Below, one piece after another: positions 4,117 to 57,493 of a stretch of 64,000 nt of DNA. The DNA lies in the sequence record NC_055712.1. One strand, given 5' to 3'. How positions within the stretch are numbered: the first letter of the stretch is position 1; the number at the start of each line of letters is the position of its first letter. The notes beneath the pieces were generated by a model. The model was not told where the DNA came from. It searched no databases and saw only the letters and a program-made list of their open reading frames with translations. The position numbers and the translations under genes are program-made. This stretch comes from Escherichia phage phT4A.

Positions 4117-4784
4117 TGGCTTACAACAATATTTCAAAAACAAGGGAGGGCGCTCGCGTCCTCTCTAAAGAAGCAGATTACTTACAGTATGATACTTATG
4201 GTAAGTTGCCTCTGATCGGCGGTAAACGTTCGATCGGCGAACCAAACATTGACCAAACAAAACGCGGTGTTCTGTATGGAAACGTACAATCCGCAATTGA
4301 TGACCTGTATACGCTTATCGAGCAAATCCCGATTAACGGCGTTGTTACCATGACTGAGGATGCACCTCCAATCGCCGTACAGCAGGTTGAGAGCGTTTCT
4401 TTTGATGGTATTGTACAGAACATCGATTCAGACCAAGAACAGGCTGTAGTTCACGTATACGGCTTCCCTTTCATCTTTGATAATGGGACTAACGCCGCAA
4501 CCGTTTGTGAAACTGCATACAACAAATTTACTGAATTCGTTGCAGCGGAAAAATATTTCGCAGAAGTTAACCGCAAAGGTGTTGATGGTACGATCCTTGA
4601 ATGTCGATTTATTGATAGTGTTCCGCACCCGGCAACAAATATCTCAGAAAACGGTATTCGTCAAATCGGAACTATCGACGTAGCCGCAAAAAATGGCTAT
4701 GGTTCATGGGTTAAGTTGGGTTCTGGTTTCTTACCTGATGTTACTCCGCAAGTAACCGTGTATTACTTCAAACGAATTGCATAA
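4116..4784 (+). CDS. 11: baseplate wedge protein gp11
   Basis: 222 aa (T4 gp11 219 aa); position between 10 and 12; start overlaps gp10 stop. Confidence 0.85.
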   Translation: MAYNNISKTREGARVLSKEADYLQYDTYGKLPLIGGKRSIGEPNIDQTKRGVLYGNVQSAIDDLYTLIEQIPINGVVTMTEDAPPIAVQQVESVSFDGIVQNIDSDQEQAVVHVYGFPFIFDNGTNAATVCETAYNKFTEFVAAEKYFAEVNRKGVDGTILECRFIDSVPHPATNISENGIRQIGTIDVAAKNGYGSWVKLGSGFLPDVTPQVTVYYFKRIA

Positions 4785-4793
4785 GGATAACAC

Positions 4794-6179: not shown

Positions 6180-6192
6180 CAGAGGTTATTAA

Positions 6193-7945
6193 ATGATCAT
6201 CGACAAATTAAACCCGTTGCCGAAGATCCCGTTTGTTGATGGCGTCCCAGATGACGCCACGACTCAAACGAAGATTATTTGGATCAAAAACGGTGAAACT
6301 CTGGACGGTTCGCCAGATAAAGTGTCAAACACTGGTAGTCTTAACCGAACTGGTGTAAACATCCAGCAGAACGCGGTTCAGTTAGAACAAAATACCATCA
6401 CCCATAATGATAAAATCAACGAAGTAATCGATCAGGTTAACTTGATTACTGAAAACATTGATGCTATTGGTGATGAGAGCGTAATCAAAAAAAGTTAACC
6501 AGTTGGATCAGGATGTTCAGGCATTAACTTTATCTAACACCCAAACACAGAACAAGGTAGCACAGTTAACCCTTTCTGTAAATGCTCAGAACGATGAAAT
6601 TGGGGAATACGATCCAGAAAAGGATCCTAAACACCGCACAATTCGTAATGATATCATTTACATTAAGAAAGAAGTTGGTTCATATCCTGGATTTAACGTT
6701 GATGGTGATGTTGACCCCTCTTCTACTGGTACTGGCCTTAAATACCGCGTACTGAGTAACCAACGTGCTATTTCTATGCAGGAAACTCGCATAACCAAAC
6801 TGGAAGATGATTGGGCGCTTTCCGAAGTAGGACAACTGACAGAAGAGGTAAAAGAACTTCGTGCTGAAATGGGTGATTCTGGTCTTGCCACAACCCGATC
6901 AATCTATGCGCGAATCAAGATCCTTGAGGATGGTTCTATTGTAATGCAAAATGAACTTGATGCGATTAATAGTTATATCGGTCGCACGTCAGGTTCAACC
7001 AGTTCCATTAACGATCGTGTGAACAGTCTGGAAAACTCCGTTAGTTCTCTGGCTACACAAATCAATGATCCGGTAACTGGTATCACTGCACAAATTGCAA
7101 CCATTAACGGTCAAATCGGTACGGCTTCTGCTCAGGGTAGTATCCGTTATGATATTGCGGAAACTAAACGCAGATTGATGGATATGGAAATGATTCTGGG
7201 TGAATCCGGCGATGATGGATTGCAGGGACAAGTTGCGATCTTAACTGGTGACGTTGGTGAAGATTCAGATCCTACCAGTATCAAAGGCCGTTTGAGTGTT
7301 GTTGAGGGTGAATTACGCACCAACACTAGCGCACTCTGGGAACTGCAAGGCGTTGTAGGTAACTCTTCTAGTGGCCTCGTTGCAACTAGCCAGCAGATTA
7401 ACAAAGAAATCTATGGTGATGGTGTTAGTTCCGATCCTGTTACTCGCGCTGGTTTGAAAACAACAACCCGCAACCTGTTCACTCAGGTAGGAGATAACTC
7501 CGAAGGTAACGAAACGGGCATTTATGCACTGATTGCCGACCTTACTAAACGTGTTGAGGATTTAGAAGCGTTGAACATTGCACAGGCACTTGCAGATCGC
7601 GTAACTATCGAAGATCTGAATGCTAAACTGGCTCTGTACATCAAAGAAGCTGACGCCGATCTCCGTTATGAGAGCAAAAACCCGCCTCTGTCATTCGGTA
7701 CTAACCTAACTGGTGATACTGAATACACTACTGGCGATCCATTGTCTCTAAGCGTAACTATGAATGGTGGTGTTTCTCCGCTGTCTTACCAGTGGACGAA
7801 AAACGGCGTAAACGTTGGTACTGATGCTAACACATTTACCATCGATTCGCTACAGCCTTCTGATTCCGGAACTTACAAAGTAACGGTAACTGATGCAAGC
7901 CATAAAGTCATCGTTTCTGATGAACTGGCGATCACTGTCGCTTAA
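6193..7945 (+). CDS. wac: fibritin (whisker protein), interrupted by a single-base frameshift in an A7 run at 6487-6493; C-terminal Ig-like domain
   Basis: Track ORFs 6193-6498 and 6503-7945 both match T4 Wac (PFVDGxP..WIKNGE; RTIRND..IKxExGxY) and are joined by removing one A from the A7 run. Confidence 0.85.
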
Positions 7946-7953
7946 CGATTAAC

Positions 7954-7974
7954 AAGGGGCTTCGGCCCCTTTTG
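7954..7974 (+). terminator. rho-independent terminator hairpin (ggggc-ttcg-gcccc + T tract)
   Basis: GC stem with ttcg loop followed by tttt directly after the wac stop. Confidence 0.6.
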
Positions 7975-7983
7975 AGGATCTTT

Positions 7984-8910
7984 ATGATTACGAACAACCC
8001 AGCACAATTAAAAGATGAAATTCTGCGCCGTTTAGGTGCTCCGATCGTCAAAATCGAAGTGACAACCGAACAGGTTTATGACTGCATTCAACGAGCATTA
8101 GACCTATATGCAGAATATCATTACAATGGATCTAACAAAGGGTATATCATTCTCACCCTGGGGCCGGACAACCCGAAAAATATTTTCGATCTGAGTAAAG
8201 AACACATTTTCGCAATTACTAAAGTGTTGCGTACTAACATGGGTTCCCTTGTATCGATGGATGGTACTGCGGTTTATCCGTGGTTTACTGATTTCCTGAT
8301 GGGCCTTACTGGTGGTTCTCTGGGCGGTGGTGGTTGTGCATCACGTACCTACGGAATGAACGCATATGGCGCGGATATGGGCTATTTTACCCAGATGATG
8401 AGCTATCAGCGGTCAATGCAAGATCTCCTGTCTCCGCTTCCGGATTACTGGTATAACGACGACACAGGACAGTTTGCAGTATACGGAACCGTTAAAGATG
8501 GTGATATTGTTGTTATCGAAGCAATGATCAGATCCTTTGTTGATGTACCCAGTATGGTCGGTAACGTCGCTGGATACGCTACAGCGGGTTCTGATGGTGA
8601 AGATAAGCCAACTATAGCAGATATATACAATAACCCCTACAAAGCCGTCTCAGGCGGCGTGAAGGCTGGTCAAGGTACAGGCGTTCAGAGTTCATCCTCT
8701 GCGTATAACAACCGTTGGGTGAAAGATTACGCAACTGCTCTTGTTAAAGAGGTAAACGGTCAGGTGCTGGCTAAGTTTCAGGGTATGCAATTGCCTGGTG
8801 GTGTTGCTCCGGATGGAACCAGACTGATTCAGGAAGCTATGCAAGAAAAAGAAAACCTCCGTCAAGAACTTCTGTTACTGTCTGATGCACTTCCAGTGTT
8901 GATGATGTAA
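7984..8910 (+). CDS. 13: neck protein gp13
   Basis: ATG at 7984 (track start 7972 is a TTG); LKDxILRRLGAPIxxxExTxxQxYDCIQRAL matches the T4 gp13 N-terminus. Confidence 0.9.
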   Translation: MITNNPAQLKDEILRRLGAPIVKIEVTTEQVYDCIQRALDLYAEYHYNGSNKGYIILTLGPDNPKNIFDLSKEHIFAITKVLRTNMGSLVSMDGTAVYPWFTDFLMGLTGGSLGGGGCASRTYGMNAYGADMGYFTQMMSYQRSMQDLLSPLPDYWYNDDTGQFAVYGTVKDGDIVVIEAMIRSFVDVPSMVGNVAGYATAGSDGEDKPTIADIYNNPYKAVSGGVKAGQGTGVQSSSSAYNNRWVKDYATALVKEVNGQVLAKFQGMQLPGGVAPDGTRLIQEAMQEKENLRQELLLLSDALPVLMM

Positions 8911-39854: not shown

Positions 39855-40113
39855 AAGTAGAAAAANNNNNNNNNNNNNNNNNNNNNNNNNNNNNNNNNNN
39901 NNNNNNNNNNNNNNNNNNNNNNNNNNNNNNNNNNNNNNNNNNNNNNNNNNNNNNNNNNNNNNNNNAAAACGTAGGTTATGGACAGGATATACCCTGGAGG
40001 CTTTACAGGCCGACCCAGAACGTTCTAAGCTACTTCCTTACATTGATGTTCTGATTGATGGTAAGTATGAAAAAGATTTGCCAACAGAAAAAGCCGTTTC
40101 GCGGTTCAGATAA
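39851..40113 (+). CDS. nrdG: ORF interrupted by scaffold gap; the C-terminal 46 codons resemble the NrdG (anaerobic RNR activase) C-terminus
   Basis: MKVEK start overlaps the gp49 stop; after the gap ..WTGYTLEAL...VLIDGKYEKDL resembles E. coli NrdG ..WTGYKLDEL...VLVDGKF.QDL. Confidence 0.45.
39866..39965. other. scaffold gap (100 N)
   Basis: Exactly 100 N; true size unknown. Confidence 0.99.
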
Positions 40114-42535: not shown

Positions 42536-45500
42536 ATGGTAGCTAAATCATTCCGCGCACGAAGTGGCCTTGATGCTGCTGGTGAAAAAGTTATCAACGT
42601 TGGGAAGGCTGATCGTAATACGCTGAGTGACGGCGTTAACGTTGACTTTTTCAATGAATTTAACGGAATCCAGCAGTATGACCCGACCCGTGGTTATTCT
42701 CAAGACATGGCGATCATTTATGCGCGTCGTATCTGGTACGCAAAACAGAATATTGCTTCCCCTGCTGGGGCTTTCGACGAATCCAAATGGATCGCAACTC
42801 GTAATGACCCGAAATGGGTTTATAGTAACGTAACCACTCCGGACGGTAGTATTATCGATTCTGGTAGTTACATTATGGCTGATGGGCGTTTTACCGAACT
42901 TCTGTACCTGCTGCCGGACAACCCGACAGAAGGCGACGTAATCACGTTTAAAGATTGCGGTGGTTTGGTTGGTGTAAACAGTATCCTCGTTAAGTCTAAC
43001 ACTCGTCAGATCCGTTTACGTGCGGTACAATCAGCGCAATATAGATTAACTCATCCTTACATGATCGCAACGTTTATCTATAACGGTAACGTGTGGCGTG
43101 TTTCTGAGGCGCTGGATAACCGTGATTCTGAAATAGTAAATGCAACCGGAACAGGTTCATTCCAGTTACAATCTGGCATGACAGTTTTCCGTAATAGCGC
43201 TACAGGTAAAATCACTCTCCAGTTACCAAAATATGCAAACGACGGTGATGTGATCACAACCTACGACGCTGATAAAATGAACTCTATCAACGTAGCCGTT
43301 TTGCAGATATATCCGGGTAGCGGACACACTATTTCTGATGGTGCAAGTACTGGTGTTACTTCGGTAACTAGCCAGAAATCCGGCTTTGGCATGTTCATCT
43401 TTGATGCACAGAATAGCCAATGGAAAGTATACGATGCGGATAACCGTGTTCGTCTACGTCGTATCTATAGTGATTTAAACGCAGTTCCAAATGATTATGT
43501 TTTTGTTACTGCAAACCCTTCTGGGGCTGTACCAAACGTTACTGTTACTCTCCCAACTGATGTTGCTGATGGTGACCGTGTTTACGTATCCCTGTATATG
43601 ATGGGTAAAAACCAGAACTGTACAATCAAAGTTAAAGATGGTACTACGGATAAGATCCGAACCAATAAAAACATGATGCAGTTCCCGCAGCGCAAAGATT
43701 ATCCGCCCGATGATTGGTTTAGCGTAACGTCTCTTGCTTTTAACGCAGGTAGCGATTACCTCCCTTATATCGAGTTTTCTTACCTGAAAGCTACGAAAGA
43801 ATGGGTTGTTGCTAACTATCGTCCGATTGTTGAACGCGTTGATGCAACAAACCGTACTCGTACTGGTGTTATTGCTCTGGCTGCTCAGGCAGAAGTTAAC
43901 AAAAACCTGGAAGATAACCCGAACGACGAAACGGCTATTACTCCGATGACGTTAGCAAATAAAACAGCTACTGAAACGCGTCGTGGTATTGCGAGACTGG
44001 CAACTACTGCCGAAGTTAACAAACTATCTACAGATACCTATCTGGATGATGTGATTGTTACTCCTAAGAAGCTGAACGAAAGAACAGCTACTGAAACGCG
44101 TCGTGGTTTGGCTGAGATTGCAACCCAGGCAGAAACAAACGGAAGTACCGATGACATTACGATCGTGACTCCTAAAAAGCTGCATAATCGTATCGCATCA
44201 CCAACATTAACGGGGATCCTTGCTCTTGTTGCAACTGGTGGTACTGCAAACACCAACACAGACCGTGCTCAGGCTGGTACTGGAATTTACGATCACTCAG
44301 ATTATCAAAAGGCGGTAACGCCTAAAACACTGCGTGAATATAAAGCAACTGAATTACAATCCGGTGCTGTATGGCTGGCAAACCTGAATGAAGTTATTAA
44401 CGGTACTGTTGCAAGTTCTAACATTCCGACCGTCGTTACTCCGGAAATGTTACACAAGAAAACTTCTACTGATGCGCGTATTGGTTTGATTGAGATCGCG
44501 ACTCAGGCAGAAACCAACGCAGGGACTGATTACACGCGAGCGGTAACGCCTAAAACGCTTAATGATCGTACTGCTACCGAAGGTCTAACCGGGATTATTG
44601 CAATTGCAACCACTGCCGAAGTATCAGCAGGTACTGTAACGAATAAAGCGATCGTACCGTCTAAACTGAAAGGTTATCTGGACGATACAAGTCATATTAC
44701 TGTTGCTACTGCTGACGGGTTAACTCAATCTGGTACTATCTGGACTACGGTTAACATCGGTATTCAATCAGCAACTGAAACTCAACGTGGTACTTTACGC
44801 GTTGCTACGCAGTCTGAGACGAACGCAGGGACATTAGATACAGTATTTGTCACCCCTAAGAAGTTACACGCTAAGAAAGCGACTGAGAGCGCAGAAGGTA
44901 TCATTCAGGTGGCTACGGCTGCTGAAACTACCGCTGGCACCGTTGCAAACAAAGCTGTTTCTCCTAAGAACTTGAAAAATACGATTCAGGTTGATACTTC
45001 ATGGCAAGCTACCGATCTGGTACGTGGTACGGTGAAACTGTCTAAAGGTGCTGGTACTTGGTCTGGTAATGATGTGGCTGGTTCTACTCTTCCTGATGAT
45101 GGTTACGCCGCTGTAGGTGTTGCTGTTTCTCCGTATGAATTGAACTTAACGCTGAAACATTATCTGCCTATCGGTGCTAAAGCTGTTGATGCTGATAAAC
45201 TTGATAATCTGGATTCTTCTCAGTTTATTCGTCGTGATGTTGCACAAACTGTTAATGGTGCGTTGACCCTGACACAAACAACCACTGTACAAGCTAACAT
45301 CAACTCAACTGCTGATGCATCTTTTCGTGTGATGAATGTCAACGGTGATTTAAACGTTGGCGACGGTTCGTCGATGGGTAAACTTCGTCTGAATGGTGGT
45401 TCAGCTAACGACTGGTCTATTCAAGCCAGTGCTGCTTCTGGGCGTATTGCGATGATTTCGACGGGTAATACTAGCACAGTTCATCTTTCTGTGTATAATG

Positions 45501-46309
45501 ATACTCGCGGCGTTGTAGCTAACGTTAAATTTCAGGCTCCTGAAATTCAGGCAACTAGCAAAGTGTCTTTAGGTAGTGATAGCGTTATTTCTGCAAGCGG
45601 TTCTAACCTTTTACTGGGGGTGAACAGTAAGACAACGCAGATCAATACATCCGATGCAGGTAACATTGTAGCGGCTGAATCTGGGAACTCTTACAAAGTC
45701 TTTACTGAGAAGAACGCGCAAACCTTGCTGAATCCTACGTATGTACGTAAAGCAGGTGATACGATGTCTGGACGGTTGACAATCAACAACAGTTCTCTTA
45801 TCATCGCAGGTCAAGCGGCTTGGTCAACTCAGGATGCAGTAAACGAAGCATCACGGGGATACTGGACAGCAGAAATTACCTCTGCTGCACAATACAACTT
45901 GCTTCCTGGTTATGCGGTTCCGGTTCTCGAACCAGATCCGATTAACCCAGATATTATGATTGTAACCCGTTATACCTACGTTAAAGCACCTGGTACGTTA
46001 ACTCAGTTTGGTAACGGAACCGCATACACTTATCAGATTTGGGCACCTCGTCCGACCTCTGGTACTGGTGTTAACGCGTTGGCGCAATCCTTCTGGATCC
46101 GTCAAATGAATCCAATTACAGGTAAATTTGATGAATGGGGCCGCATGTATACGAGCAACAACCCGCCTACTGCTGGTGAAATTGGGGCAACGTCTGCTGT
46201 TGGTACTACGGTTAAAAACATGACTGTTACTGATTGGATCAAAGTTGGTAATGTTAAGATTTACCCAGATCCGGTTACTCAGACAGTTAAATTTGAGTGG
46301 GTGGCATAA
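42536..46309 (+). CDS. 34: long tail fibre proximal subunit gp34
   Basis: 1257 aa from the ATG at 42536; N-terminus GLDAAGEK(V/I)INV..ADRNT.SDGVNVD, QQYDPTRGY, TATETRRG(I/L)A repeats and C-terminal PDPVTQTVKFEWV match T4 gp34. Confidence 0.95.
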   Translation: MVAKSFRARSGLDAAGEKVINVGKADRNTLSDGVNVDFFNEFNGIQQYDPTRGYSQDMAIIYARRIWYAKQNIASPAGAFDESKWIATRNDPKWVYSNVTTPDGSIIDSGSYIMADGRFTELLYLLPDNPTEGDVITFKDCGGLVGVNSILVKSNTRQIRLRAVQSAQYRLTHPYMIATFIYNGNVWRVSEALDNRDSEIVNATGTGSFQLQSGMTVFRNSATGKITLQLPKYANDGDVITTYDADKMNSINVAVLQIYPGSGHTISDGASTGVTSVTSQKSGFGMFIFDAQNSQWKVYDADNRVRLRRIYSDLNAVPNDYVFVTANPSGAVPNVTVTLPTDVADGDRVYVSLYMMGKNQNCTIKVKDGTTDKIRTNKNMMQFPQRKDYPPDDWFSVTSLAFNAGSDYLPYIEFSYLKATKEWVVANYRPIVERVDATNRTRTGVIALAAQAEVNKNLEDNPNDETAITPMTLANKTATETRRGIARLATTAEVNKLSTDTYLDDVIVTPKKLNERTATETRRGLAEIATQAETNGSTDDITIVTPKKLHNRIASPTLTGILALVATGGTANTNTDRAQAGTGIYDHSDYQKAVTPKTLREYKATELQSGAVWLANLNEVINGTVASSNIPTVVTPEMLHKKTSTDARIGLIEIATQAETNAGTDYTRAVTPKTLNDRTATEGLTGIIAIATTAEVSAGTVTNKAIVPSKLKGYLDDTSHITVATADGLTQSGTIWTTVNIGIQSATETQRGTLRVATQSETNAGTLDTVFVTPKKLHAKKATESAEGIIQVATAAETTAGTVANKAVSPKNLKNTIQVDTSWQATDLVRGTVKLSKGAGTWSGNDVAGSTLPDDGYAAVGVAVSPYELNLTLKHYLPIGAKAVDADKLDNLDSSQFIRRDVAQTVNGALTLTQTTTVQANINSTADASFRVMNVNGDLNVGDGSSMGKLRLNGGSANDWSIQASAASGRIAMISTGNTSTVHLSVYNDTRGVVANVKFQAPEIQATSKVSLGSDSVISASGSNLLLGVNSKTTQINTSDAGNIVAAESGNSYKVFTEKNAQTLLNPTYVRKAGDTMSGRLTINNSSLIIAGQAAWSTQDAVNEASRGYWTAEITSAAQYNLLPGYAVPVLEPDPINPDIMIVTRYTYVKAPGTLTQFGNGTAYTYQIWAPRPTSGTGVNALAQSFWIRQMNPITGKFDEWGRMYTSNNPPTAGEIGATSAVGTTVKNMTVTDWIKVGNVKIYPDPVTQTVKFEWVA

Positions 46310-47245
46310 TGTCAAACTTAATGGCGGGGTTCGGCCCCGATTTTGTAGAAACGCAAATTCTATCGGAAACAAACAGCGTAACTTACAGAATAACCGCAAA
46401 GGCAACACATCCCAATGCGGTTCCTAATCAGTATGAGTTTACACTAAATCAAAAGGCGGTAGGGACACCGCCTAGTGTTGGGATCAACGTATGGAGAATT
46501 AACAATGCTGTAGTTGATCCAATTAAAACCTTCACATTATCGAATGATAATTCAGCAACTGCAAACAAAGCGTTTGTTGAATATATGGATGCTCAACCTT
46601 CTGGGCTGTATTTGATAATGACTAACGGTGAATACAAAACAAGCCAAATCGTTGATGATTGGTTTGCTAAAAACAGATCCGTTATGTGGCAAGGCGCTGA
46701 TTTCGCTCAGAGATTCCCAAATTCTGCATATGTTGCATTGTATGGGGCTTCAAAATCTCGTATACTGATTGAATCGTTTTACGCGAACGATGGAGTTTTA
46801 AAAGAAGATTCACGCGCATCAATCGATCTTGTCTATGATAACGTTGGTGATGTTGGGCGAACTGGTGTACCTTTCCGATCTGTTGAAGATACGGAAGAAT
46901 ACAATTCAACCAATGGATCTGAATATAAAGTATATCCTGTTGCAAACCCAGTGATCTCTAAACTGGCTGATTATGGTATGGCTCCTGGATTAGCTATGAT
47001 GATTGCTGGTGATTTTTACGCCAGCAAAGCATTATTGGATGCTGGATCAACAACAAGGGTTACTGTTCGATGGTTTACGGGTACTGCTCAAACTTCATCA
47101 TCGGTGATTGAAGTTCCTGCAAATAAACCTGATGAGTGGTTACGATTTGAACAGTTCTATACGATCCCTAGTGGTTGTGATGGATTTAACGTTGCTGTAT
47201 CTCGTTATCCTAAACCCGCTACGGATAGTTTATCTGCGTATCCGT
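46309..47245 (+). CDS. 35: long tail fibre hinge protein gp35 (3' end lost in scaffold gap), assigned by position
   Basis: ATG overlaps the gp34 stop; 312 codons before the gap (T4 gp35 is 372 aa); the track's 1640-aa ORF is an artefact of reading through N. Confidence 0.55.
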
Positions 47246-47345
47246 NNNNNNNNNNNNNNNNNNNNNNNNNNNNNNNNNNNNNNNNNNNNNNNNNNNNNNN
47301 NNNNNNNNNNNNNNNNNNNNNNNNNNNNNNNNNNNNNNNNNNNNN
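47246..47345. other. scaffold gap (100 N)
   Basis: Exactly 100 N; probably hides the gp35 3' end, possibly gp36, and the first codons of the distal fibre gene. Confidence 0.99.
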
Positions 47346-50300
47346 TTTAGCAAAAATTCAATTCCTACGTAGCACAGTTGCGGGGAAAACACCTACTACA
47401 AGTCAGCTTGCAGATGGTGAACTGGCGATCAACATGGCTGATTATGCCATTTACACGAAAAATGGTTCTTCGATCGTTCAGTTAGCGGGTAAAGGTATCC
47501 CAGAAACAAATACCAAAAAATTAACAGTAAATGGGCCTAGTGCTCTTAATGATACCGTTACCGTAGCGGAAGGTAAAACTATTACTTTCACCAACGCGGA
47601 TTTGAGCGGGGGTATGGTTCGTCATATCACTGGTAAAAACGCGCTTAATGATGGTTGGTACATCGGTTCTGGTGGTGAGAGCAATAAAGGGTTTTTAGAA
47701 ATCGGTACAATTGATGACGGTGATGAAGAGATCCGTTTCGTTTCCCGTGGTTCTGGTGATACTGTTCGTCGTACTCTGAAACTTATTGATTCCGGTGGTA
47801 ACACTCGCGTACCAGGTAACATCTATATTGATGAAGCTATGGGCGGTGGTGGTTCTGCTTTTATTTCAAAAAACAAAGCATATTTCGGTGCTGGCGGTGC
47901 TGATATCTATATGCGTAACACTGCTGGCGGTGCGACAAATCAGTTAACGATCACTGATGGCGGTGAATTGCTGTTTCAAGCAAAACCTGTATACTGGGAC
48001 GGTCGTAAACCGACTTTAACCGAATTGGGGATCGGGCGGGTTGAAAACGCGCGTCAAATGCAGCAAGACAATTGGCCTATAACTACAGGTAATGAAACCC
48101 GATGGGTTAAAGTTGCTCTTTTAAAAGATCCTGGCTCAGGTCATAGTCGCTTGCAACTGATGGTGACTAACGGCGGTAACTATGGTTCTACACGCGGATC
48201 GTTCGATTTTATCGATTGTTCTGCTCGTAGTATGCCTTCAACATTAACGGCTGCAAATATTCGTTCTTATCTGCAAATTCGTCGATTGGGCGATCCGGCA
48301 ATGGATGACACTAACCAGATGCGTTATAGTTTGGTTCGCACATCCGAAGGTTTGGAATTGTGGTTTACTCAAAGATCGTTCATCGGTAGTACAAAAATTG
48401 CTCTGTTATCTACGGCTGGCGTGACTGAATATTATATTCCTAGTGGATATACATCACAAACAACCGCTCCGGATGGTTTGATCGAGAGTAAGCCTATTCG
48501 TATCTATGACGAAATGAACAAACCTAGCCTTGACGATGGTACTGATGGTATTCTGTCTGTTGCTAAAGGTGGTACAGGCGCAAGTACAGCGGCTGCTGCT
48601 CGCACAAACTTAGGTTTGGGTACTGCTGCAACCCGTGATGTTGGTACAGGTTCCGGACAAGTAATGCTTGTTGGTGCTTACGGTTTAGGCGGTAAGGGTA
48701 CATCATATAGCATCGCAAATGCTCGCGACTTCCTGAAACAACTGCGTACTGATGGTTCTCAGTTCATGCGAAATACGCTTGGTACTGACATTAACTATGG
48801 TATGGGCGCAAGTTTTTATAGTTCCGTATCAGATGTTCATGCAGTGATCTCGGTTGATTGGAATACTGGTCGCGTTAAAGTTGGTGCAACTAATGATACT
48901 AACCTTAACTCAGATACAGGAAGAATCAACTTCCAGGAACTGTACGGTACTGCATTTAAACCGACTCCGGATGACGTAGGGGCTGTTGCACGTGCTGGTG
49001 ATACGATGTCTGGTGATCTGACGATCTCTAAAGTGTCGCCTGGTTTCCATTTGAATGCTGAGAGCGGAAACTCCGTAATTTGGTTTAAGTATAAAGGGGT
49101 TGAAAGTGGTGCTGTGTGGGCGTTGCCTAATACTGCCTCTTCTGGTGAAGTTCGCATTCGTGCCAGAACGTCGGGCGGAACGACTGGGGGCGAATTCTCA
49201 TTTAAATCAGACGGTACATTTACATCACCTGGTAATATCAATATTACTAGCGGCGCTTTCAACGGTAAAAGTGTCAATACTCAGTATGCGAACTTTAATA
49301 ACACAAGTTCAACAACAACCGAACAAACCGTTTCTATTAGTGGTTCGCAGCACACTCCTCTGTTACTGAATAGACCGACTAACTCGAACTTGTCTATCGG
49401 GTTTAAACTTTCCGGAATGAACATGAAACGTTTGGGTATCGATGTAAACGGTGATATTCGTTACGGTGAAGCCGAAAACCAGACACAAAACGCATGGCTG
49501 TTGACTTCGGATACCATAAACAGATGGAGTGTTAACTTCGGGCGTGATATTAACGTTGCAGGTGTAGTTAATTCAACTGGTGGATTTACTGGCCCTGTTA
49601 CTGCATATGATTTGACCGGGGTAACTCAGGATCTTGATGCTTTAACATTGAACAATGCCGAACCAGGACATATTAAAGTTTATTCGTGCCGTAGTATGGG
49701 TGGCGGTGATAACATCACCAATAAACCTTCCGGCGTAGGTGGTAACTTTATTGTTATCGTTGAATGTCTCCGTAAAGTCGGCGATACTGATTACACTAAC
49801 CGTCAAGTATTACGCGCATCGGACAATAAACGCAGTTGGGAACGTTGGTTTACTGTTAGCGGTACTGCTAAAGCCTGGACACCGTGGAGAATGAACGTTG
49901 TTAGCGGAAACGATGACGATGTATCATTTAAATCTGTTACCACAACTACAGGAAACCTGAACAGTGGAAACGATCTGATTGTTGCGAACAACGCTCGCGT
50001 AGGTGGCAACTTAGGGTTAGGTGGTGCTTCTTCCACGACATACACTGATAAAGGTGTTGTGATTGGTAACGGTAGTGCGCTGTTAGAATCCACTGATGGT
50101 CGCATGATTATTGGTAGTTCTGGTGCTGGTCGTGCTGTTGAATTGCGTCCTGGTGGCCCAACTCAAACCAACAACGGGATCAAAGTGACTGCTACCTCTG
50201 GAAGTGGTGGTGATACTGCGATCGAGTATGCGCAAGGGGTGAAAATCCGGGCAAATAACGGTGGTGCGTTGATTATTTCTGCTAAAGCTGGACAAACGAT

Positions 50301-51219
50301 TTATCTACGTCCTCAAGGAGATACATCCAGCACAAACGAAACAAGGATTGATTCTAGTGGTAACATGATAGTTAATGGTAATATCAGTGCAAACGGAAAT
50401 ATGTCTGCTACTGGTACGTTAACTGTTTCTGGTGCTACTACATTAAACAACACATTAACGGTTAATAATGTAGGGCCAATCGAGAAACGGGGGATCAGGA
50501 CGTATACAGAAGGTTCTGTTACTGTCAACGAAACCGACGGCATTACGATGTTTGGTAATGGCACAATTCATGGCACAATGCGATTAGTTGAGAGAGTGAA
50601 TAATACTACTTTCATCGGTCTGCAAACTTCCATTAATGACACTACAAACGGTTGGTTTGAATTCCACCACACAGGAAAATTCAAATCAAACAATATCGAA
50701 GCCTCTGGTAATATTGTTAGTTTGACTGGTTCCATTGGTGCTGTTGGTGCATTGACTGTAACGGCTCCTTCTTCTGATAACGGTACTGACCATATTTGGT
50801 TCCGTAACTCTGATGGATCTGAACGTGGTGTTATCTATATGCCAGGCAATGCTAATATTGGCGGTTTCCGCGTTCGTGGTGTGGAATGGCAATTTGATGG
50901 CGGTGCTAGTCAGTTTATCGGCCCTGGTGCTCGTTGGCGTATTCACCCTGATGGTAATATTCAGGCTGATGTTTTTAGCGGTTATCTGAATAACTACATC
51001 AATGATCGGTTTAACGCGTGTGCTCAGTGGGTTCGTACTGGTGCTCAACAGGACTTTGGTCAGATCGGTCGTCCTGCTCCTGGTTTAACAGTTCCTGCTG
51101 GTTGGGTTTTAGTTGGTCTTAACGCCAACGGTAACGAAGCTAACCAGAACATGCAGTTAATCGGTGGTCGTTTGCAGGTATGGAAGAATAACGTTCAATG
51201 GGTTGATTCTGCAACTTGA
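47346..51219 (+). CDS. 37: long tail fibre distal subunit, gp37-type (fibre A; 5' end in gap)
   Basis: Begins (truncated) LAKIQFLRSTVAGKTPT.SQLADGELAINM, matching the T4 gp37 N-terminus MATLKQIQFKRS..AGTRP...LAEGELAINL; about 1290 aa; no C-terminal chaperone domain; followed by a gp38-like chaperone. Confidence 0.8.
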
Positions 51220-51226
51220 TAAAATA

Positions 51227-51240
51227 GGGGCTTCGGCCCC
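51227..51240 (+). terminator. GC hairpin (ggggc-ttcg-gcccc) after fibre A, weak T tract
   Basis: Same hairpin type as other terminators in the window but followed by ttcattc. Confidence 0.35.
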
Positions 51241-51261
51241 TTCATTCTTAAAGGTAAAATA

Positions 51262-51663
51262 ATGATTGTTAAACAAATGAAAGGTATTCGCTGGCATCAT
51301 AATTTTGAAGGTGGTGCTTACTATCGTGATTGTAATGACAAGTGCTGGTATGAATTTCGTAATTCTTTGGATAAAAATTCCCATATCATTATAGTTGATG
51401 CTAAAACCAATAAAATCATTAACTATTATAACGGTGATGATCCTACGATGATTGGATTGTTTGCTGATAAAGAAATGATTCTTAATGTGTATCAGCTATC
51501 AGAATTTCCTGTTAATGACTGGGGAGAATTCTCTAAGCGAGAATTTAAGTTCGAAGATGATAAGGTAGTCATGACGAAAGATGTTGAACTTCCGAAATCT
51601 CGAACAAAAGAAGATATCATGGCAGATTTGATAAAACTTCAAAAAGAGCTAGAGGTAATGTAA
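51262..51663 (+). CDS. 38: tail fibre assembly chaperone, gp38-like
   Basis: 133 aa directly after fibre A; pattern similarity to the T4 gp38 chaperone (..IIIVDAKTNKIINYY.. vs ..YAVVFDERTQDWIY..; ..FPVNDWGEF.. vs ..FDEPGEFDIW..). Confidence 0.5.
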   Translation: MIVKQMKGIRWHHNFEGGAYYRDCNDKCWYEFRNSLDKNSHIIIVDAKTNKIINYYNGDDPTMIGLFADKEMILNVYQLSEFPVNDWGEFSKREFKFEDDKVVMTKDVELPKSRTKEDIMADLIKLQKELEVM

Positions 51664-51669
51664 TTTCTA

Positions 51670-51747
51670 AGGCTACCTATATGGTAGCCTTTTTGTTGTA
51701 TGCTAAATATACCTATAGCAACCTAAGAAGAGTCTTATAAAATGGCT
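51670..51747 (+). repeat. intergenic element copy 1: terminator hairpin (aggctacc...ggtagcct + T5) + AT box + ATGGCT start
   Basis: About 90% identical to 56445-56513. Confidence 0.8.
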
Positions 51748-51847
51748 NNNNNNNNNNNNNNNNNNNNNNNNNNNNNNNNNNNNNNNNNNNNNNNNNNNNN
51801 NNNNNNNNNNNNNNNNNNNNNNNNNNNNNNNNNNNNNNNNNNNNNNN
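51748..51847. other. scaffold gap (100 N)
   Basis: Exactly 100 N; flanks share ggct, compatible with a direct join giving ATG GCT GAT TTA (MADL...). Confidence 0.99.
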
Positions 51848-54800
51848 GGCTGATTTAGCAAAAATTCAATTCCTACGTAGCACAGTTACGGGGAAAACAC
51901 CTACTACAAGTCAGCTTGCAGATGGTGAACTGGCGATCAACATGGCTGATTATGCCATTTACACGAAAAATGGTTCTTCGATCGTTCAGTTAGCGGGTAA
52001 AGGTATCCCAGAAACAAATACCAAAAAATTAACAGTTGATGGGCCTAGTGCTCTTAATGATACCGTTACCGTAGCGGAAGGTAAAACTATTACTTTCACC
52101 AACGAGGATTTAAGTGGTGGAATAACTCGTCATATCGTTGGCAAATGCGCCACTAATGATGGTTGGTACATCGGTTCCGGTGGTACAAGCAACAATGGTA
52201 TTCTTGAAATCGGTACTATTGATGACGGCGTTGAAACCATCCAGATCGTACAGCGCGGCGCAGGCAACGTTGAAGCCAGAAAGTTAGTCTTGCTTGATGG
52301 TTCGGGTAATACGAATCTTCCTGGTGATTTAAGATTAACCACCAATAAAGCTGTTAAAATTTCGAATGGAAGCACTCTTACACTAGAAATGGGCGTAGGT
52401 GCTAACGATGTATACATTAAAAACCTGAAAGGCTCTGGCGTTCTTCAATTAACCAATGATAGTAATCTGTCGTTCAGAAATTACCAGGTTTATTATGCCA
52501 TGAGTGGAAAAGGCCCTGGTAAAGATGGTACTCTTCTGACTAATGTAGAAAACGAGCGCCAACTTAAACAGGATAATTTCCCTATAACTACAGGCAACGA
52601 AGCTCGGTGGACTAAAGTTGCTCTTTTAGTAGACCCCGGCTCAGGGCCGAGTCGCTTGCAACTGATGGTGACGAACGGCGGTAACTTTGGTTCTACGCGT
52701 GGCTCTATCGACTTTATCGATTGTAGCGCTAGAAACTTTCCCGCAACATTAACAAGCAGTAACATTCGTTCTTATCTGCAAATTCGTCGAATCGGCGATC
52801 CTGGACTTGATGGCACAAACCAATTACGTTATAGTCTAGTTCGTACCTCTGAGGGTTTAGAACTGTGGTTTACACAACGCGCGTTTATTAGTGGTGTTAA
52901 AGTTGCTCTGCTGTCTATTGATGGTAATACTAAATATTATCTGCCTACTGGTTACACGACTACTTCAACTGCTCCAGAAGGTTTAGTTGAGAGTACGGCT
53001 ATTCGTATCTATGATGAGGTAAACAAGCCTAATCTCGACGATGGTACTGATGGTATTCTGTCTATTGCTAAAGGTGGTACAGGTGCAAGTACAGTAGATG
53101 CCGCTCGCACAAACTTAGGTTTGGGTACGGCTGCAACCCGTGATGTTGGTACAGGTTCCGGACAAGTAATGCTTGTTGGTGCTTACGGTTTAGGCGGTAA
53201 GGGTAAATCCTATAGTAGTTCAACCTCTCGCGATTACCTGAAACAACTGCGTGCTGATGGTTCTCAGTTCATGCGAAATACGCTTGGTACTGAAATTAAC
53301 TATGGTATGGGCGCAAGTTTTTATAGTTCCGTATCAGATGTTCATGCGGTGATCTCGGTCGATTGGAATACTGGACGCGTTAAAGTTGGTGCGACTAATG
53401 ATGCTAACTTGAACTCAGATACCGGAAAAATCAGCTCTCAGGAACTGTACGGTACTGCATTTAAACCAACTCCGGATGACGTAGGGGCTGTTGCTCGTAC
53501 TGGTGATACAATGTCTGGTGATTTGCTTATCAGTAAAGAGTCACCTGGGTTATTTTTGAATGCCACTAATGATACCGGAAACTCTGTAATTTGGTTTAGA
53601 AACAAAGGAGTTGAGACAGGTGCTGTATGGGCAATACCTAACACCGAGTCTTCGGGTGAGGTTCGAATTCGTGCTAGAACGACTGCTGGGGTCACAGGCG
53701 GCGAGTTCAAATTTAAATCTGACGGTACATTTACATCACCTGGTGATGTAAATATCACCAGCGGTGCTTTCAACGGTAAAAGTATCAACACTCAGTATGC
53801 GAACTTTAATAACACAAGTTCAACCACAACCGAACAAACCGTTACTATTAGTGGTTCACAGCACACTCCGCTGTTACTGGATAGACCGACTAACGCGAAC
53901 TTGTCTATCGGGTTTAAACTTTCCGGAATGAACATGAAACGTTTGGGTATTGATGTAAACGGTGATATTCATTACGGTGAAGCAGAAAACCAGACAAACA
54001 ACGCATGGCTGTTGACTTCGGATACAGTAAACAGATGGGTTGTTAACTTTGGTCGTGATATTAACGTTGCTGGTGTGGTTAATTCGACTGGTGGATTTGC
54101 TGGCCCTGTCGCAGCGTATGATTTGGCTGATGTTAAACTAGATCTTAATGATTTAACGCTAACTGGCGCTACCCCAGGCCATGTTAAAGTTTATTCATGC
54201 CCTAGTATGGGTGGCGGTAATAACATCACCAATAAACCTTCTGGCGTCGGTGGTAACTTTATTGTTATTGTTGAATGTCTCCGTAAAATAAACGATACCG
54301 ATTACACTAACCGTCAAGTATTACGCACATCTGATAGTAAACGCAGTTGGGAACGTTGGTTAACTGTTAGCGGTACTTCTAAAATCTGGACACCGTGGCG
54401 TGTTAATATTGTTAATGGGAATGATGACGATGTATCATTTAAATCCGTTACCACGACTACAGGAAACCTGAACAGCGGAAATGATTTGATTGTTGCTAAC
54501 AACGCTCGCGTAGGTGGTAACTTAGGGTTAGGTGGTGCTTCTTCAACGAAATACGCTGATAAAGGTGTTGTGATTGGCAAAGGTAGTGCTCTGTTAGAAA
54601 CTACTGATGGTCGTGTGATTATTGGTAGTTCTGGTGGTGGTAATGCTGTTGAATTGCGTCCCGGTGGCCCAACTCAAACCAACAACAGGATCAAAGTAAC
54701 TGCTACCTCTGGAAGTGGTGGTGATACTGCGATCGAGTATGAACAAGGCGCTAAAATTCGTGCTAATAATGGTGGTGATTTGATTGTTTCTGCTAAAGCA

Positions 54801-55823
54801 GGTCAAGCAATTTATCTGCGACCGCAAGGTGATGCATCCAGCACAAACGAAACCCGTATTGATGCAAACGGTAGTATCACGATTAACGGCAATATTAACG
54901 CCAACGGTACATTAACTTGTACTGGTGGTGCTGTTAACGGAGACTTGACTGTATCAGGAAAAGTAGATATCACTGGAAACCAGTTAAAAACTACATCGCT
55001 CTGGGTTACTGGAGATGCTGCTGTTAACGGTGTTTTAACTGTTGATGGAAGGGCTAGGTTTAATCAAGAGTTCATTGTATCAACTTCGGTTAACGTCCAG
55101 AACACTGGTAACAGTCATTTGGTCTTCCGTAAAGCTGATGGTACAGAAAAAGGACTTATTTGGGCTGATGAGCCTGGTAGCGTTAGTATAAGAGCAGGTG
55201 GTGTCTCTGGGCCAACGTGGAATTTCTGGAACAGTGGTTCTTGCCAATTCCCAGGTGCTATTAGTAACTTTAATGGTGTTAATAGTACTACTAATTACCC
55301 TGGCGGCGGAAGTGGCGCGTATTTAAATACCGCTGGCTTAACAAGTAGATTTAGTAATGGTGCTTATGTTTCCTTATACTTCCAAGAATATGTAGGAAAT
55401 TATCACCAGGCTATTCTTAATGTTAACGGCTATGGTCGAGATGACAATTTCTATTTCAGGGCCGGCGGTGACTTCTTCTGTACTCGTAACGGTTCTTTTG
55501 ATAACGTTGAGATTCGTTCTGACCGTAGAGCCAAATCGGATATCAAAGTTATTGAAAATGCTTTAGAAAAGGTTGAAACATTATCTGGTAATACTTATGA
55601 ACTTCATAACACTTCTGGCGGTACTACTCGTTCTGCTGGGTTGATTGCTCAGGAAGTTCAAGAAATCTTACCGGAAGCAGTTACTCAAGATAATGAAGAA
55701 GATGGCGGTATGCTTCGTCTGAATTATAACTCAGTAATTGCACTTCTTGTTGAATCTGTTAAAGAGCTTTCTGCCGAAGTTAAAAATCTTAAAGCAGAAA
55801 TTGAAGAACTTAAATCTAAATAA
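51848..55823 (+). CDS. second gp37-type distal tail fibre (fibre B) with C-terminal S74-type intramolecular chaperone domain
   Basis: Reads (M)ADLAKIQFLRSTVTGKTPT... from the gap edge; co-linear with fibre A at 70-95% aa identity over about 1100 aa, then a different tip. Confidence 0.8.
55518..55823 (+). other. C-terminal intramolecular chaperone (peptidase S74-like) domain of fibre B
   Basis: SDRRAKSDIK.IENALEKVETLSG.TYEL......RSAGLIAQEVQEILPEAV...........LNYNSVIALLVESVKEL matches the T5 pb1 / endosialidase CIMCD consensus. Confidence 0.8.
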
Positions 55824-55826
55824 TGC

Positions 55827-55850
55827 ATGGGGCTTCGGCCCCATCTTTTA
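55827..55850 (+). terminator. hairpin (atggggc-ttcg-gccccat) after fibre B
   Basis: 7-bp stem, ttcg loop, then ctttt. Confidence 0.5.
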
Positions 55851-55862
55851 GGAGAAATAACT

Positions 55863-56390
55863 ATGGCAGTAACAGGGCCGTGGGTCGGAAGTTCAGCAAA
55901 GGCTGAAACTGGTGAGTCGTGGATGGCTCAAGCTGGGGCCAAATTAAGAATAGGGACACCGTTTTGGATGTCTAATATGATTGGACAAAGCGTATTCCAT
56001 TTAATTTTCAGAATTAACTATGCACAGGGTTCTTCTGGTGATCCATCTAGATATAGAGGATTCTTTAAAAGAGGGTTAGCAGTAAGTGTAGGAGATTCTG
56101 CTAACCAACCGACGCTGAATGCGTTCCCTGGCGGAGATGTGGGTTCACTAGTAGCTATTACAAATATCAAAGGCGACCCTTATTGCCTTTCTATTTGGAA
56201 TGGTCAAGATAGGCGAGTTAAAGTTTCTATTTTTAGAAGCGATGGAGCCGAACAATACGATGTTTATTTTAGCGGAACTACTATGGCTGACGGGTGGAGA
56301 AGGTATAAATGCGAAGATGCTGGAGGTCTCAATGGGTATTTTGAGGCTAGAATGGATAACCAGTTTGGTGCTTTATTAGAATATGTTTGA
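55863..56390 (+). CDS. hypothetical protein in the gp38 position downstream of fibre B (possible fibre accessory/adhesin)
   Basis: 175 aa from the ATG at 55863 with AGGAG RBS; Gly/Ser/Trp-rich; no family recognised. Confidence 0.5.
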   Translation: MAVTGPWVGSSAKAETGESWMAQAGAKLRIGTPFWMSNMIGQSVFHLIFRINYAQGSSGDPSRYRGFFKRGLAVSVGDSANQPTLNAFPGGDVGSLVAITNIKGDPYCLSIWNGQDRRVKVSIFRSDGAEQYDVYFSGTTMADGWRRYKCEDAGGLNGYFEARMDNQFGALLEYV

Positions 56391-56444
56391 TAGGTAAACC
56401 AACAAATTCACCTCATAATATTAAATAGATTAAAAGGCTACCAT

Positions 56445-56513
56445 ACAGGTAGCCTTTTTGTTGTATCCTAAATATACGTATAGTAACCTAAGAAGAGTCT
56501 TATAAAAATGGCT
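56445..56513 (+). repeat. intergenic element copy 2 (terminator hairpin + AT box + ATGGCT holin start)
   Basis: About 90% identical to 51670-51747. Confidence 0.8.
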
Positions 56514-56742
56514 GAGAGAAATCCCGTAGATAAACTAGCCTTATTTGATCGGGTAATCTCGTTTGTGATGGGTGTGAAAACATGGAAACAATTGCTGATA
56601 AAAATAATTCTAATAATGGTTATGTTTCTTATGGTAGTAACTTGGTACAAATGGACTGATATATTCCCGATGATAAAAGGTGCCCTTGTAGTCGATACAA
56701 GGGCTATCGAAATGGAAAGAACTGAAAAGTTTAATCAATCCG
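56508..56742 (+). other. t: 5' portion of holin gene t, duplicated on the left side of a scaffold gap (probable unmerged contig overlap)
   Basis: 56506-56742 is identical base-for-base to 56843-57079. Confidence 0.85.
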
Positions 56743-56842
56743 NNNNNNNNNNNNNNNNNNNNNNNNNNNNNNNNNNNNNNNNNNNNNNNNNNNNNNNNNN
56801 NNNNNNNNNNNNNNNNNNNNNNNNNNNNNNNNNNNNNNNNNN
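56743..56842. other. scaffold gap (100 N), probably spurious
   Basis: Flanked by a 237-bp exact overlap. Confidence 0.95.
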
Positions 56843-56845
56843 AAA

Positions 56846-57493
56846 ATGGCTGAGAGAAATCCCGTAGATAAACTAGCCTTATTTGATCGGGTAATCTCGT
56901 TTGTGATGGGTGTGAAAACATGGAAACAATTGCTGATAAAAATAATTCTAATAATGGTTATGTTTCTTATGGTAGTAACTTGGTACAAATGGACTGATAT
57001 ATTCCCGATGATAAAAGGTGCCCTTGTAGTCGATACAAGGGCTATCGAAATGGAAAGAACTGAAAAGTTTAATCAATCCGCGTTGGAACAGTTGAGCATA
57101 GTTCATCTTACTTCCAACGCGGATTTTTCAGCGGTATTGGCATTCAGACCAAAGAATATAAACTATTTTGTTGACATTGTAGAATATCAGGGAAAACTAC
57201 CATCCCAGATCGATCCTAAAAACCTCGGCGGTTATCCGATCGATAAAACATCCGAAGAATACACGAATCATATAAATGGCTTGTATTATTCATCCACTAA
57301 AGCAAGTTCCTACCTACCGACACGTGGTTTTGTGCCAGTAGCTTATACTTTTAGTTGCCCTTATTTTAATCTTGATAACTACTATTCTGGATCGGTTTTG
57401 ATGGAATGGTACGCAAAGCGGCCTAATATACCAGATATGAAGCTAAACATCATATGTGGACAGGCCGCGCGTATTTTAGGTCGAGTGAGGTGA
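56846..57493 (+). CDS. t: holin T (lysis/lysis-inhibition)
   Basis: 215 aa; N-terminal TM segment, ALEQL.IVH..S.ADFSAV..FRPKN.NYFVDI..Y.GKLPS, LGGYP.DKT, SCPYFNLDN.Y.G, ICxQAARILGR match the T4 gpt holin. Confidence 0.93.
   Translation: MAERNPVDKLALFDRVISFVMGVKTWKQLLIKIILIMVMFLMVVTWYKWTDIFPMIKGALVVDTRAIEMERTEKFNQSALEQLSIVHLTSNADFSAVLAFRPKNINYFVDIVEYQGKLPSQIDPKNLGGYPIDKTSEEYTNHINGLYYSSTKASSYLPTRGFVPVAYTFSCPYFNLDNYYSGSVLMEWYAKRPNIPDMKLNIICGQAARILGRVR

Follow-up and report, generated by a model that had tools for sequence, protein, structure and literature searches.

The double tail-fibre locus in the phT4A record is probably two alternative Slopekvirus cassettes scaffolded in tandem

Introduction

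Heterozygous or strain-variant haplotypes can be falsely duplicated when an assembly bubble is linearised in tandem, a general artefact of genome assembly. At phage tail-fibre loci, two arrangements are relevant to such a case. In the Tfa type (lambda Tfa, Mu U, P2 G), a small gene lies directly after its fibre gene. In the gp37-gp38 adhesin system of the T2, S16 and RB49 type (PDB 6F45; PMC9569957), gp37 ends in a self-cleaving S74 chaperone, and a gp38 with an N-terminal gp37-attachment domain is encoded downstream of it.

Both arrangements appear to occur in Slopekvirus. In genomes with an A-type cassette (vB_KM5a1-KLB23, PP554337; vB_KpnM_Lemur_ER36, PP738775; VAC13, MZ322895), the fibre gene is followed by a gene for a 133-aa Tfa-like protein, and this cassette stands alone between gp36 and the holin gene t. 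In genomes with a B-type cassette (KP15, GU295964; LR881140.1; K14-2; P60_7), the genes for a fibre of ~1325 aa ending in S74 and for a 175-aa Gp38_N protein come in this order before t. The swap between Tfa and gp38 adhesin at this locus was reported in a 2026 preprint, and cassette exchange within Slopekvirus is thus already described.

The window analysed here is a 64,000-nt stretch of record NC_055712.1, Escherichia phage phT4A. By sequence similarity it is assigned to Slopekvirus (KP15-like Straboviridae, Klebsiella T4-type phages): named Klebsiella phages match its flanking contigs at 99.4-99.6% identity, and the order gp34-gp35-(gp36)-gp37-accessory-t is conserved with KP15-like genomes. 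A preliminary description of the locus reported two gp37-type modules, A and B, one after the other, and offered two readings, a dual long-tail-fibre genome or population alleles scaffolded in tandem. We find that both modules map to one and the same interval, which favours the second reading over the first, and put the probability that the double locus is an assembly artefact, with two alternative versions of one cassette set in tandem, at about 0.88.

Results

Contig structure of the locus

Five contigs are scaffolded in the window, and a scan for N runs found four, each exactly 100 N long, one at every join. Contig 3 (47346-51747) carries fibre A and its 133-aa gene, and contig 4 (51848-56742) carries fibre B and its 175-aa gene (Table 1). 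The heads of both lie at most 9 nt from the gp37 start codon, and the tails of both lie at, or just within, t. Neither fibre gene has an intact start codon; both open at a contig head, fibre A lacking its first 8 nt and fibre B the first 2 nt of its ATG. No uninterrupted sequence runs from A to B: contig 3 ends in ...TATAAAATGGCT, contig 4 starts with GGCTGATT, and only the 100-N spacer stands between them. A hypothetical direct A-to-B junction would read ...TATAAAATGGCT followed immediately by GATTTAGC..., and a real tandem would carry ...TATAAAATGGCTGATTTAGC... across the junction.

Table 1 Features of the double tail-fibre locus (positions in the window)
Feature	Position	Strand	Match or remark
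gp35 (proximal hinge connector), truncated by the end of contig 2	46309..47245	+	phrog_1154, E 2e-119
100-N spacer	47246-47345	.	contig 2 / contig 3; real sequence missing
Fibre A, gp37-type distal long-tail-fibre subunit	47346..51219	+	phrog_10316, E 0
GGGGCTTCGGCCCC hairpin, immediately downstream of the fibre A stop codon	51227..51240	+	
133-aa Tfa-like tail fibre assembly protein, module A	51262..51663	+	phrog_136
End of contig 3: terminator hairpin, TATAAA, first 6 nt (ATGGCT) of holin t	51669..51747	+	
100-N spacer	51748-51847	.	separates the two probable alleles; nothing shows them to be physically adjacent
Fibre B, gp37-type distal subunit	51848..55823	+	phrog_10316
Peptidase_S74 intramolecular chaperone domain of fibre B (predicted)	55518..55823	+	PF13884 and motif
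Same GGGGCTTCGGCCCC hairpin, immediately downstream of the fibre B stop codon	55829..55842	+	
175-aa gp38-type tail-fibre adhesin (probable), module B	55863..56390	+	PF21721, phrog_1121, PDB 6F45_D
Tail of contig 4: terminator, TATAAAA, first 235 nt of holin t	56432..56742	+	
100-N spacer	56743-56842	.	set between contigs 4 and 5, which overlap by 238 nt
Holin t, complete copy, head of contig 5	56846..57493	+	PF11031 Phage_holin_T, E 3e-52

The spacer sizes are nominal. Measured against relatives, the first gap stands for ~4.95 kb, the nrdD-nrdG region, and the second for ~923 nt (the 3' end of gp35, all of gp36 and the first 8 nt of gp37), since contig 2 stops at reference position 2745 and contig 3 begins at 3669 (KP15, KLB23). 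The truncated gp35, which maps to KP15 gp35, breaks off at about nt 937 of 1125. The flanks of the fourth gap overlap: positions 56505-56742 are 100% identical to 56843-57080, and these 238 nt were left unmerged.

Both modules map to the same interval

In every related genome, contigs 3 and 4 both map to one interval, between gp36 and t. Contig 3 aligns to positions 3669-8070 of the KLB23 locus with 99.4% identity across all 4402 nt, and contig 4 to positions 3663-8562 of the KP15 locus. The end of contig 3 (51669..51747) matches KLB23 and Lemur_ER36 at 100% identity, with holin t coming directly next in both, and the A-type genomes share with it the terminator and promoter leading into t; here, 100 N and a second cassette come instead. 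Among B-type cassettes, contig 4 shows 98.5% identity to that of LR881140.1 and about 87% to that of KP15; beyond allelic divergence and its probably artefactual placement, nothing sets it apart from them. The lineage that matches contigs 2 and 3 is L006 (100.0% and 99.6%), and the one that matches contig 5 (99.4%) together with contig 4 is LR881140.1. Within the window the flanking regions are present in one version only.

The two fibres are alike over much of their length and differ in their tips

Comparison of the fibres upheld the preliminary account of two homologous gp37-type genes. Their first 251 nt differ at only 3 positions, consistent with the near-identical 5' region described there; the proteins share 70.6% amino acid identity over 1,195 aa (blastp), with 50-aa windows mostly at 62-92% and a variable island at aa ~150-245. 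The C-terminal tips diverge as claimed, with essentially no similarity past aa ~1010-1040; the A-specific tip begins at about 50397 and the B-specific tip at about 54908.

The S74 domain proposed for fibre B was recovered as Pfam Peptidase_S74 (aa 1224-1279; E 4e-15; score 56.1 bits, cut-off 22), and the fibre B C-terminus matches S16 gp37 (PDB 6F45_A, E 1.7e-14). The domain begins with the Ser-x4-Lys motif SDRRAK at aa 1224 (Ser/Lys dyad), so that release of ~101 aa is predicted. Fibre B thus resembles, at the level of sequence, the T2/S16-type gp37 with its putative self-cleaving chaperone. In fibre A, neither an S74 domain nor any Pfam match was found, and a PDB sequence search with its tip gave no meaningful match. 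An NCBIfam search with five proteins of the locus returned nothing useful.

The accessory genes belong to different types

The small gene after fibre A had been described as a gp38-like chaperone, and the one after fibre B as encoding an unrelated protein. The 133-aa protein of module A has no Gp38 or Gp38_N match in Pfam or PHROGs; its residues 1-130 align with PHROG 136, 'tail fiber assembly protein' (E 6e-13), and the KLB23 depositor noted an HHpred similarity to assembly protein U, in agreement with the Tfa type. The protein has no Pfam match even at E<=10, and hence none to the Pfam tail-fibre-assembly model, and no NCBIfam or meaningful PDB match. Its gene begins 43 nt past the fibre A stop codon, an arrangement shared by at least 10 independent contigs, and this placement directly after the fibre gene fits the Tfa type.

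The 175-aa protein of module B carries Gp38_N (E 6e-23; score 80.9 bits, cut-off 25), matches the N-terminus of S16 gp38 (PDB 6F45_D, E 4e-8, residues about 1-44) and belongs to a short adhesin family, phrog_1121 (E 4e-47). By these matches it appears to be a gp38 with its N-terminal gp37-attachment domain, encoded downstream of gp37. S16 gp38 is longer (249 aa), and detectable similarity is confined to residues 1-44; past residue 44 there is no S16 gp38 similarity, and there are no poly-Gly motifs of the kind expected for a glycine-rich-motif C-terminal receptor-binding domain. In 7 independent contigs the gene was annotated at 175 aa, and the ATG at 55827, inside the hairpin, is not its start. 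With Gp38_N in the 175-aa protein and none in the 133-aa protein, the earlier labels are reversed, and the gp38 homologue of module B is most likely an adhesin rather than a chaperone. The suggestion of two chaperone strategies survives in spirit, A having a separate Tfa-like protein and B an intramolecular S74, but the gp38 homologue sits in module B and not in A.

No related sequence carries both modules

Among about 250 related phage records, and among 17 independent public contigs with the exact accessory proteins, not one has both modules. The exact 133-aa protein (at least 10 contigs) always lies in the order gp34-gp35-gp36-fibre-133aa-holin, and the exact 175-aa protein (7 contigs) always in the order gp34-gp35-gp36-fibre(S74)-175aa-holin. 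With an 11.5-kb query, no span exceeded 7.5 kb among the best 30 listed records; the hypothetical A-to-B junction was spanned by 0 of 172 related records; and a query joining the A and B tips matched 246 records in 247 places, none of which covered both tips. A 50-mer of contig 4 (searched in IMG/VR, GTDB genomes and JGI metagenomes) and the exact fibre B protein matched single-cassette slopekviruses only. The junction 32- and 33-mers, in both A-run variants, were absent from IMG/VR, a weak test in which the positive control found only KP15. By sequence comparison, then, each copy appears to have no position of its own, and a tandem no counterpart among relatives.

Contig breaks coincide with divergence and convergence points

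Upstream of t, contig 5 opens at the first base that versions A and B have in common, and this start, with contigs 4 and 5 left unmerged, gives the picture of a closing assembly bubble. At the branch points the contigs overlap by different amounts, 34 and 40 nt for the heads and 9 and 238 nt for the tails, a misfit with contig ends set by a single fixed k-mer size, as in simple de Bruijn output. Both contigs stay whole across a 148-nt exact stretch common to the two, and the breaks sit at points where the stretch shared in a tandem genome would be no longer than 42 nt. When contig ends were compared with lineage-variant sites, contig 2 was found to end 6 nt before one, and the tail of contig 4 not to lie just before one. 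Compared with 11 relatives, contig 2 also carries one extra T, inserted 7 nt short of its end.

Discussion

As in haplotype false duplication, two paths between the same flanks stand here in series, separated by fixed-length N gaps, with breaks at the points of divergence and convergence. We propose that the read set held two versions of the Slopekvirus distal long-tail-fibre cassette, which may have come from two phages that occurred or were isolated together, from variants of the cassette within a single phage, or from contamination. A mixture of two genomes would need further contigs outside the window or a shared backbone, since the window holds one version of the flanks. Since the paths diverge at the conserved gp37 start and meet again just upstream of t, the assembler would have put each version into a contig of its own. 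A scaffolding step would then have ordered the contigs, most likely against a reference, and, as both map to the same interval, set them one after the other with 100-N spacers. Such an artefact accounts for the 1640-aa open reading frame joining gp35 to gp37 through Ns, as well as for the absent gp36 and the doubled 5' end of t.

We considered whether the tandem could be real. An A-type and a B-type slopekvirus would then have undergone unequal crossover at ATGGCTGA, 8 nt common to the gp37 start and the t start, yielding two complete distal-fibre cassettes that the assembler merely broke at repeats. A single crossover would explain why the left flank and A match one lineage while B and the right flank match another, and the window has no second copy of the flanks. 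However, no sequence crosses the junction, none of the related records and contigs compared is tandem, the junction k-mers are absent from IMG/VR, and repeats of at most 42 nt should not break an assembly that resolved an exact repeat of 148 nt. A real tandem also leaves unexplained why contigs 4 and 5 overlap by 238 nt without being merged, why contig 5 starts precisely where A and B converge and why gp36 is lost, and in it fibre B would be stripped of its conserved gp36-coupled ribosome-binding context. We therefore regard a genuine tandem as very unlikely. That the N runs merely mask continuous sequence whose order and adjacency are genuine has a negligible probability: all four are 100 N long, as masks might be, but 100 masked bases would leave the flanks collinear with relatives except for a 100-nt hole. 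Instead, about 4.95 kb and about 923 nt are missing at the first two gaps and the fourth has a size of minus 238 nt; the exact 238-nt duplication on either side of 56743-56842 contradicts the masking reading outright.

With two alternative cassettes scaffolded in tandem as the preferred reading, each would be a complete and, in this sample, probably mutually exclusive solution. By homology, the C-terminal tip of gp37 in cassette A is the presumed receptor binder, and its folding may be aided by the separate Tfa-like protein. In cassette B, gp37 would trimerise with its C-terminal S74 intramolecular chaperone, which would cut itself off and expose the tip to which the separate gp38 adhesin attaches, as in T2 and S16.

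Taken at face value, the record describes a T4-type phage with two alternative receptor-binding half-fibres, a striking host-range strategy. If the tandem were true, long tail fibres of two kinds could be assembled by the phage on a single gp34-gp36 scaffold, one with a Tfa-dependent tip and one an S74 fibre with a gp38 adhesin; the reading as an artefact heads off a false claim of this kind. Two fibre-cassette variants were evidently in the sample, which bears on purity checks of therapeutic Klebsiella phage preparations. The locus illustrates the known exchange of cassettes between conserved linkers.

Contig order and gap sizes in the tail-fibre region

The tail-fibre region belongs to Slopekvirus, the KP15-like T4-type Klebsiella phages. 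It matched 266 phage records, in which the reference gene order is gp34, gp35, gp36, gp37-like fibre, accessory gene and holin t. With its four runs of exactly 100 N, the window consists of five contigs joined via fixed spacers. Contigs 3 and 4 occupy one and the same place in relatives: contig 3 aligned with the A-type slopekvirus KLB23 at 99.4% identity over its full 4402 nt (locus positions 3669-8070), and contig 4 with the B-type KP15 at locus positions 3663-8562. The gp37 reading frame is entered at nt 9 by contig 3 and at nt 3 by contig 4.

With contig 2 ending at reference position 2745, gap 2 hides ~923 nt, comprising the gp35 end, gp36 as a whole and the opening 8 nt of gp37; gp36 is wholly missing from the window. 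Gap 1 hides ~4.95 kb, since the contig 1 tail maps to Roth22 147242-153107 and the first base of contig 2 to 158060; the missing stretch is the nrdD to nrdG region of relatives. Gap 4 is negative, at 238 nt. These sizes rule out Ns that mask 100 real bases and, together with the contig mapping, indicate that placeholder gaps connect contigs whose order was set, most likely from a reference.

Features of the window
Feature	Position	Remark
Gap 1	39866-39965	100 N
gp34 repeat	43938-44796	55-nt motif, four copies, 62-100% identity to reference copy; internal repeat of proximal fibre shaft
Listed 1640-aa ORF	46297-51219	Artefact: gp35 reads in frame across 100 N into gp37
Surplus T	47239	Contig 2, seven bases from contig end, against all 11 relatives compared; probably a contig-end error
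Gap 2	47246-47345	100 N
Fibre A	47346-51219	Begins at contig 3 base 1
Exact shared stretch	47381-47528; 51889-52036	148 nt
Second divergent island	~47790-48080; ~52295-52585	aa ~150-245, 26-34% identity
Hairpin GGGGCTTCGGCCCC	51227-51240; 55829-55842; 7956-7969	14 nt, UUCG-type, identical copies; first two directly past fibre A and B stop codons
133-aa gene	51262-51663	After fibre A
Gap 3	51748-51847	100 N
Fibre B	51848-55823	Begins at contig 4 base 1
175-aa gene	55863-56390	True start at 55863
Holin t 5' end, duplicated	56505-56742; 56843-57080	Final 238 nt of contig 4 and opening 238 nt of contig 5, 100% identical
Gap 4	56743-56842	100 N

Comparison of the two modules

The fibre A and fibre B genes are homologous. 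The near-identical 5' region of about 230 nt reported in the preliminary description was recovered, with 3 mismatches within the first 251 nt, as was the internal homology, with 70.6% identity across 1,195 aa by blastp and most 50-aa windows at 62-92%. The tips diverge as described, with no meaningful similarity past aa ~1010-1040 by blastp or in 50-aa windows. The second island, within the otherwise conserved N-terminal part of gp37, suggests a further mosaic segment in addition to the tip. The S74 domain proposed for fibre B was confirmed by Pfam (Peptidase_S74, aa 1224-1279), by an SDRRAK Ser/Lys motif at its start and by C-terminal similarity to S16 gp37 (6F45_A) in a PDB sequence search. 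A Pfam search with fibre A returned no match.

Judged by their database matches, the accessory genes had been mislabelled. The supposed gp38-like chaperone after fibre A is the 133-aa gene, whose sole match was PHROG 136 ("tail fiber assembly protein") and for which the KLB23 depositors annotated HHpred similarity to assembly protein U. The 175-aa protein after fibre B, previously called unrelated, matched Pfam Gp38_N far over threshold and PHROG 1121 ("tail fiber adhesin"), and resembles the first 44 residues of S16 gp38. Annotation of this locus cannot be relied on. In VAC13, an A-type slopekvirus, the homologue of the Tfa-like 133-aa gene (L003 16060-16461, MZ322895.1 78059-78460), is annotated "single-stranded DNA-binding protein", and several records name gp37 "L-shaped tail fiber protein" or "chaperone of endosialidase".

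Search for both modules together

With an 11.5-kb query, matches in the 30 top-ranked listed records extended over no more than ~7.5 kb of each record's own sequence. Of 172 records, none bridged a synthetic junction that linked the 133-aa gene to the start of fibre B; the contig 3 half of this junction was found at 100% in KLB23 and the A-type Lemur_ER36, both running on into the holin. When the A tip with the Tfa gene was joined to the B tip with the gp38 gene, 246 records matched at 247 places, none covering both halves. By exact-sequence look-up, contigs encoding the identical 133-aa protein always carried gp34-gp35-gp36-fibre-133aa-holin (10 places among the matches listed), and those encoding the identical 175-aa protein always gp34-gp35-gp36-fibre(S74)-175aa-holin (7 places). 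The preliminary description had offered either a dual locus or two alleles in tandem; the two genes and their relationship stand, but their side-by-side order is most likely not real, as both contigs map to one interval and no relative among the records searched carries both.

Signs of a probable assembly bubble

Contig 3 ends in ...TATAAAATGGCT, six bases inside t, contig 4 extends 235 nt inside t, and contig 5 starts 3 nt upstream of the t start codon. The t 5' end is duplicated because the overlapping contigs 4 and 5 were N-joined instead of merged. Their perfect overlap remained unmerged, which implies a second path into the contig 5 head, a role that the contig 3 tail fits. The sequence immediately before t is TATAAAATGG in the A version and TATAAAAATGG in the B version; with its opening AAAATGG, contig 5 begins at the first base that A and B have in common. 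The assembler crossed the 148-nt shared stretch in both fibre contigs, and the assembly breaks where the fibre gene and t begin, points at which the sequence shared in a tandem genome would be 42 nt at most. Taken together, the contig ends and overlaps, along with the lineage matches below, would point to an assembly bubble.

The independent contig L006 shares 100.0% identity with contig 2 and 99.6% with contig 3, and the B-type genome LR881140.1 shares 98.5% with contig 4 and 99.4% with contig 5; the cross-comparisons reach only 92.2% and 97.8%. All three mismatches between A and B within the first 251 nt recur, unchanged, between L006 and LR881140.1. The change of lineage across the A/B gap would also be expected had a single unequal crossover, at the shared ATGGCTGA, joined modules A and B in a real tandem, and each flank is present in one version only within the window; we nevertheless consider such a tandem very improbable. 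From the contigs and relatives, an artefactual order is most likely, and we infer that the modules are mutually exclusive in the sample.

Proposed function and exchange of the cassettes

In the T2/S16/RB49 pattern, the S74 domain drives trimerisation and self-cleaves, and then a gp38 monomer, docked on the tip by its N-terminal domain, binds the receptor (PMC9569957). Module B follows this pattern by homology. At 175 aa, its gp38 is short, and it has none of the glycine-rich architecture seen in S16 gp38. Most likely, S74 would trimerise the fibre and cut itself away, after which gp38 would sit on the tip as receptor binder. Module A has no intramolecular chaperone; from homology, its Tfa-like protein presumably helps to fold a receptor-binding tip that belongs to gp37 itself.

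Both cassette types are already known within Slopekvirus, and a Tfa/gp38 cassette swap was reported in a 2026 preprint (bioRxiv 10.64898/2026.05.12.724579). As understood here, the preprint assigns the intramolecular chaperone to the Tfa-type variant; across 17 public contigs (L005-L021), precomputed Pfam hits place S74 solely in fibres with a Gp38_N protein encoded just after them. The GGGGCTTCGGCCCC copy number is far over chance expectation (0.01), and the hairpin may represent a conserved linker, or an RNA element, that lies between variable tip and accessory gene. Both cassettes also share the gp37 5' region and, ahead of t, a terminator plus TATAAA element, and with these conserved flanking elements the arrangement suits cassette exchange by recombination.
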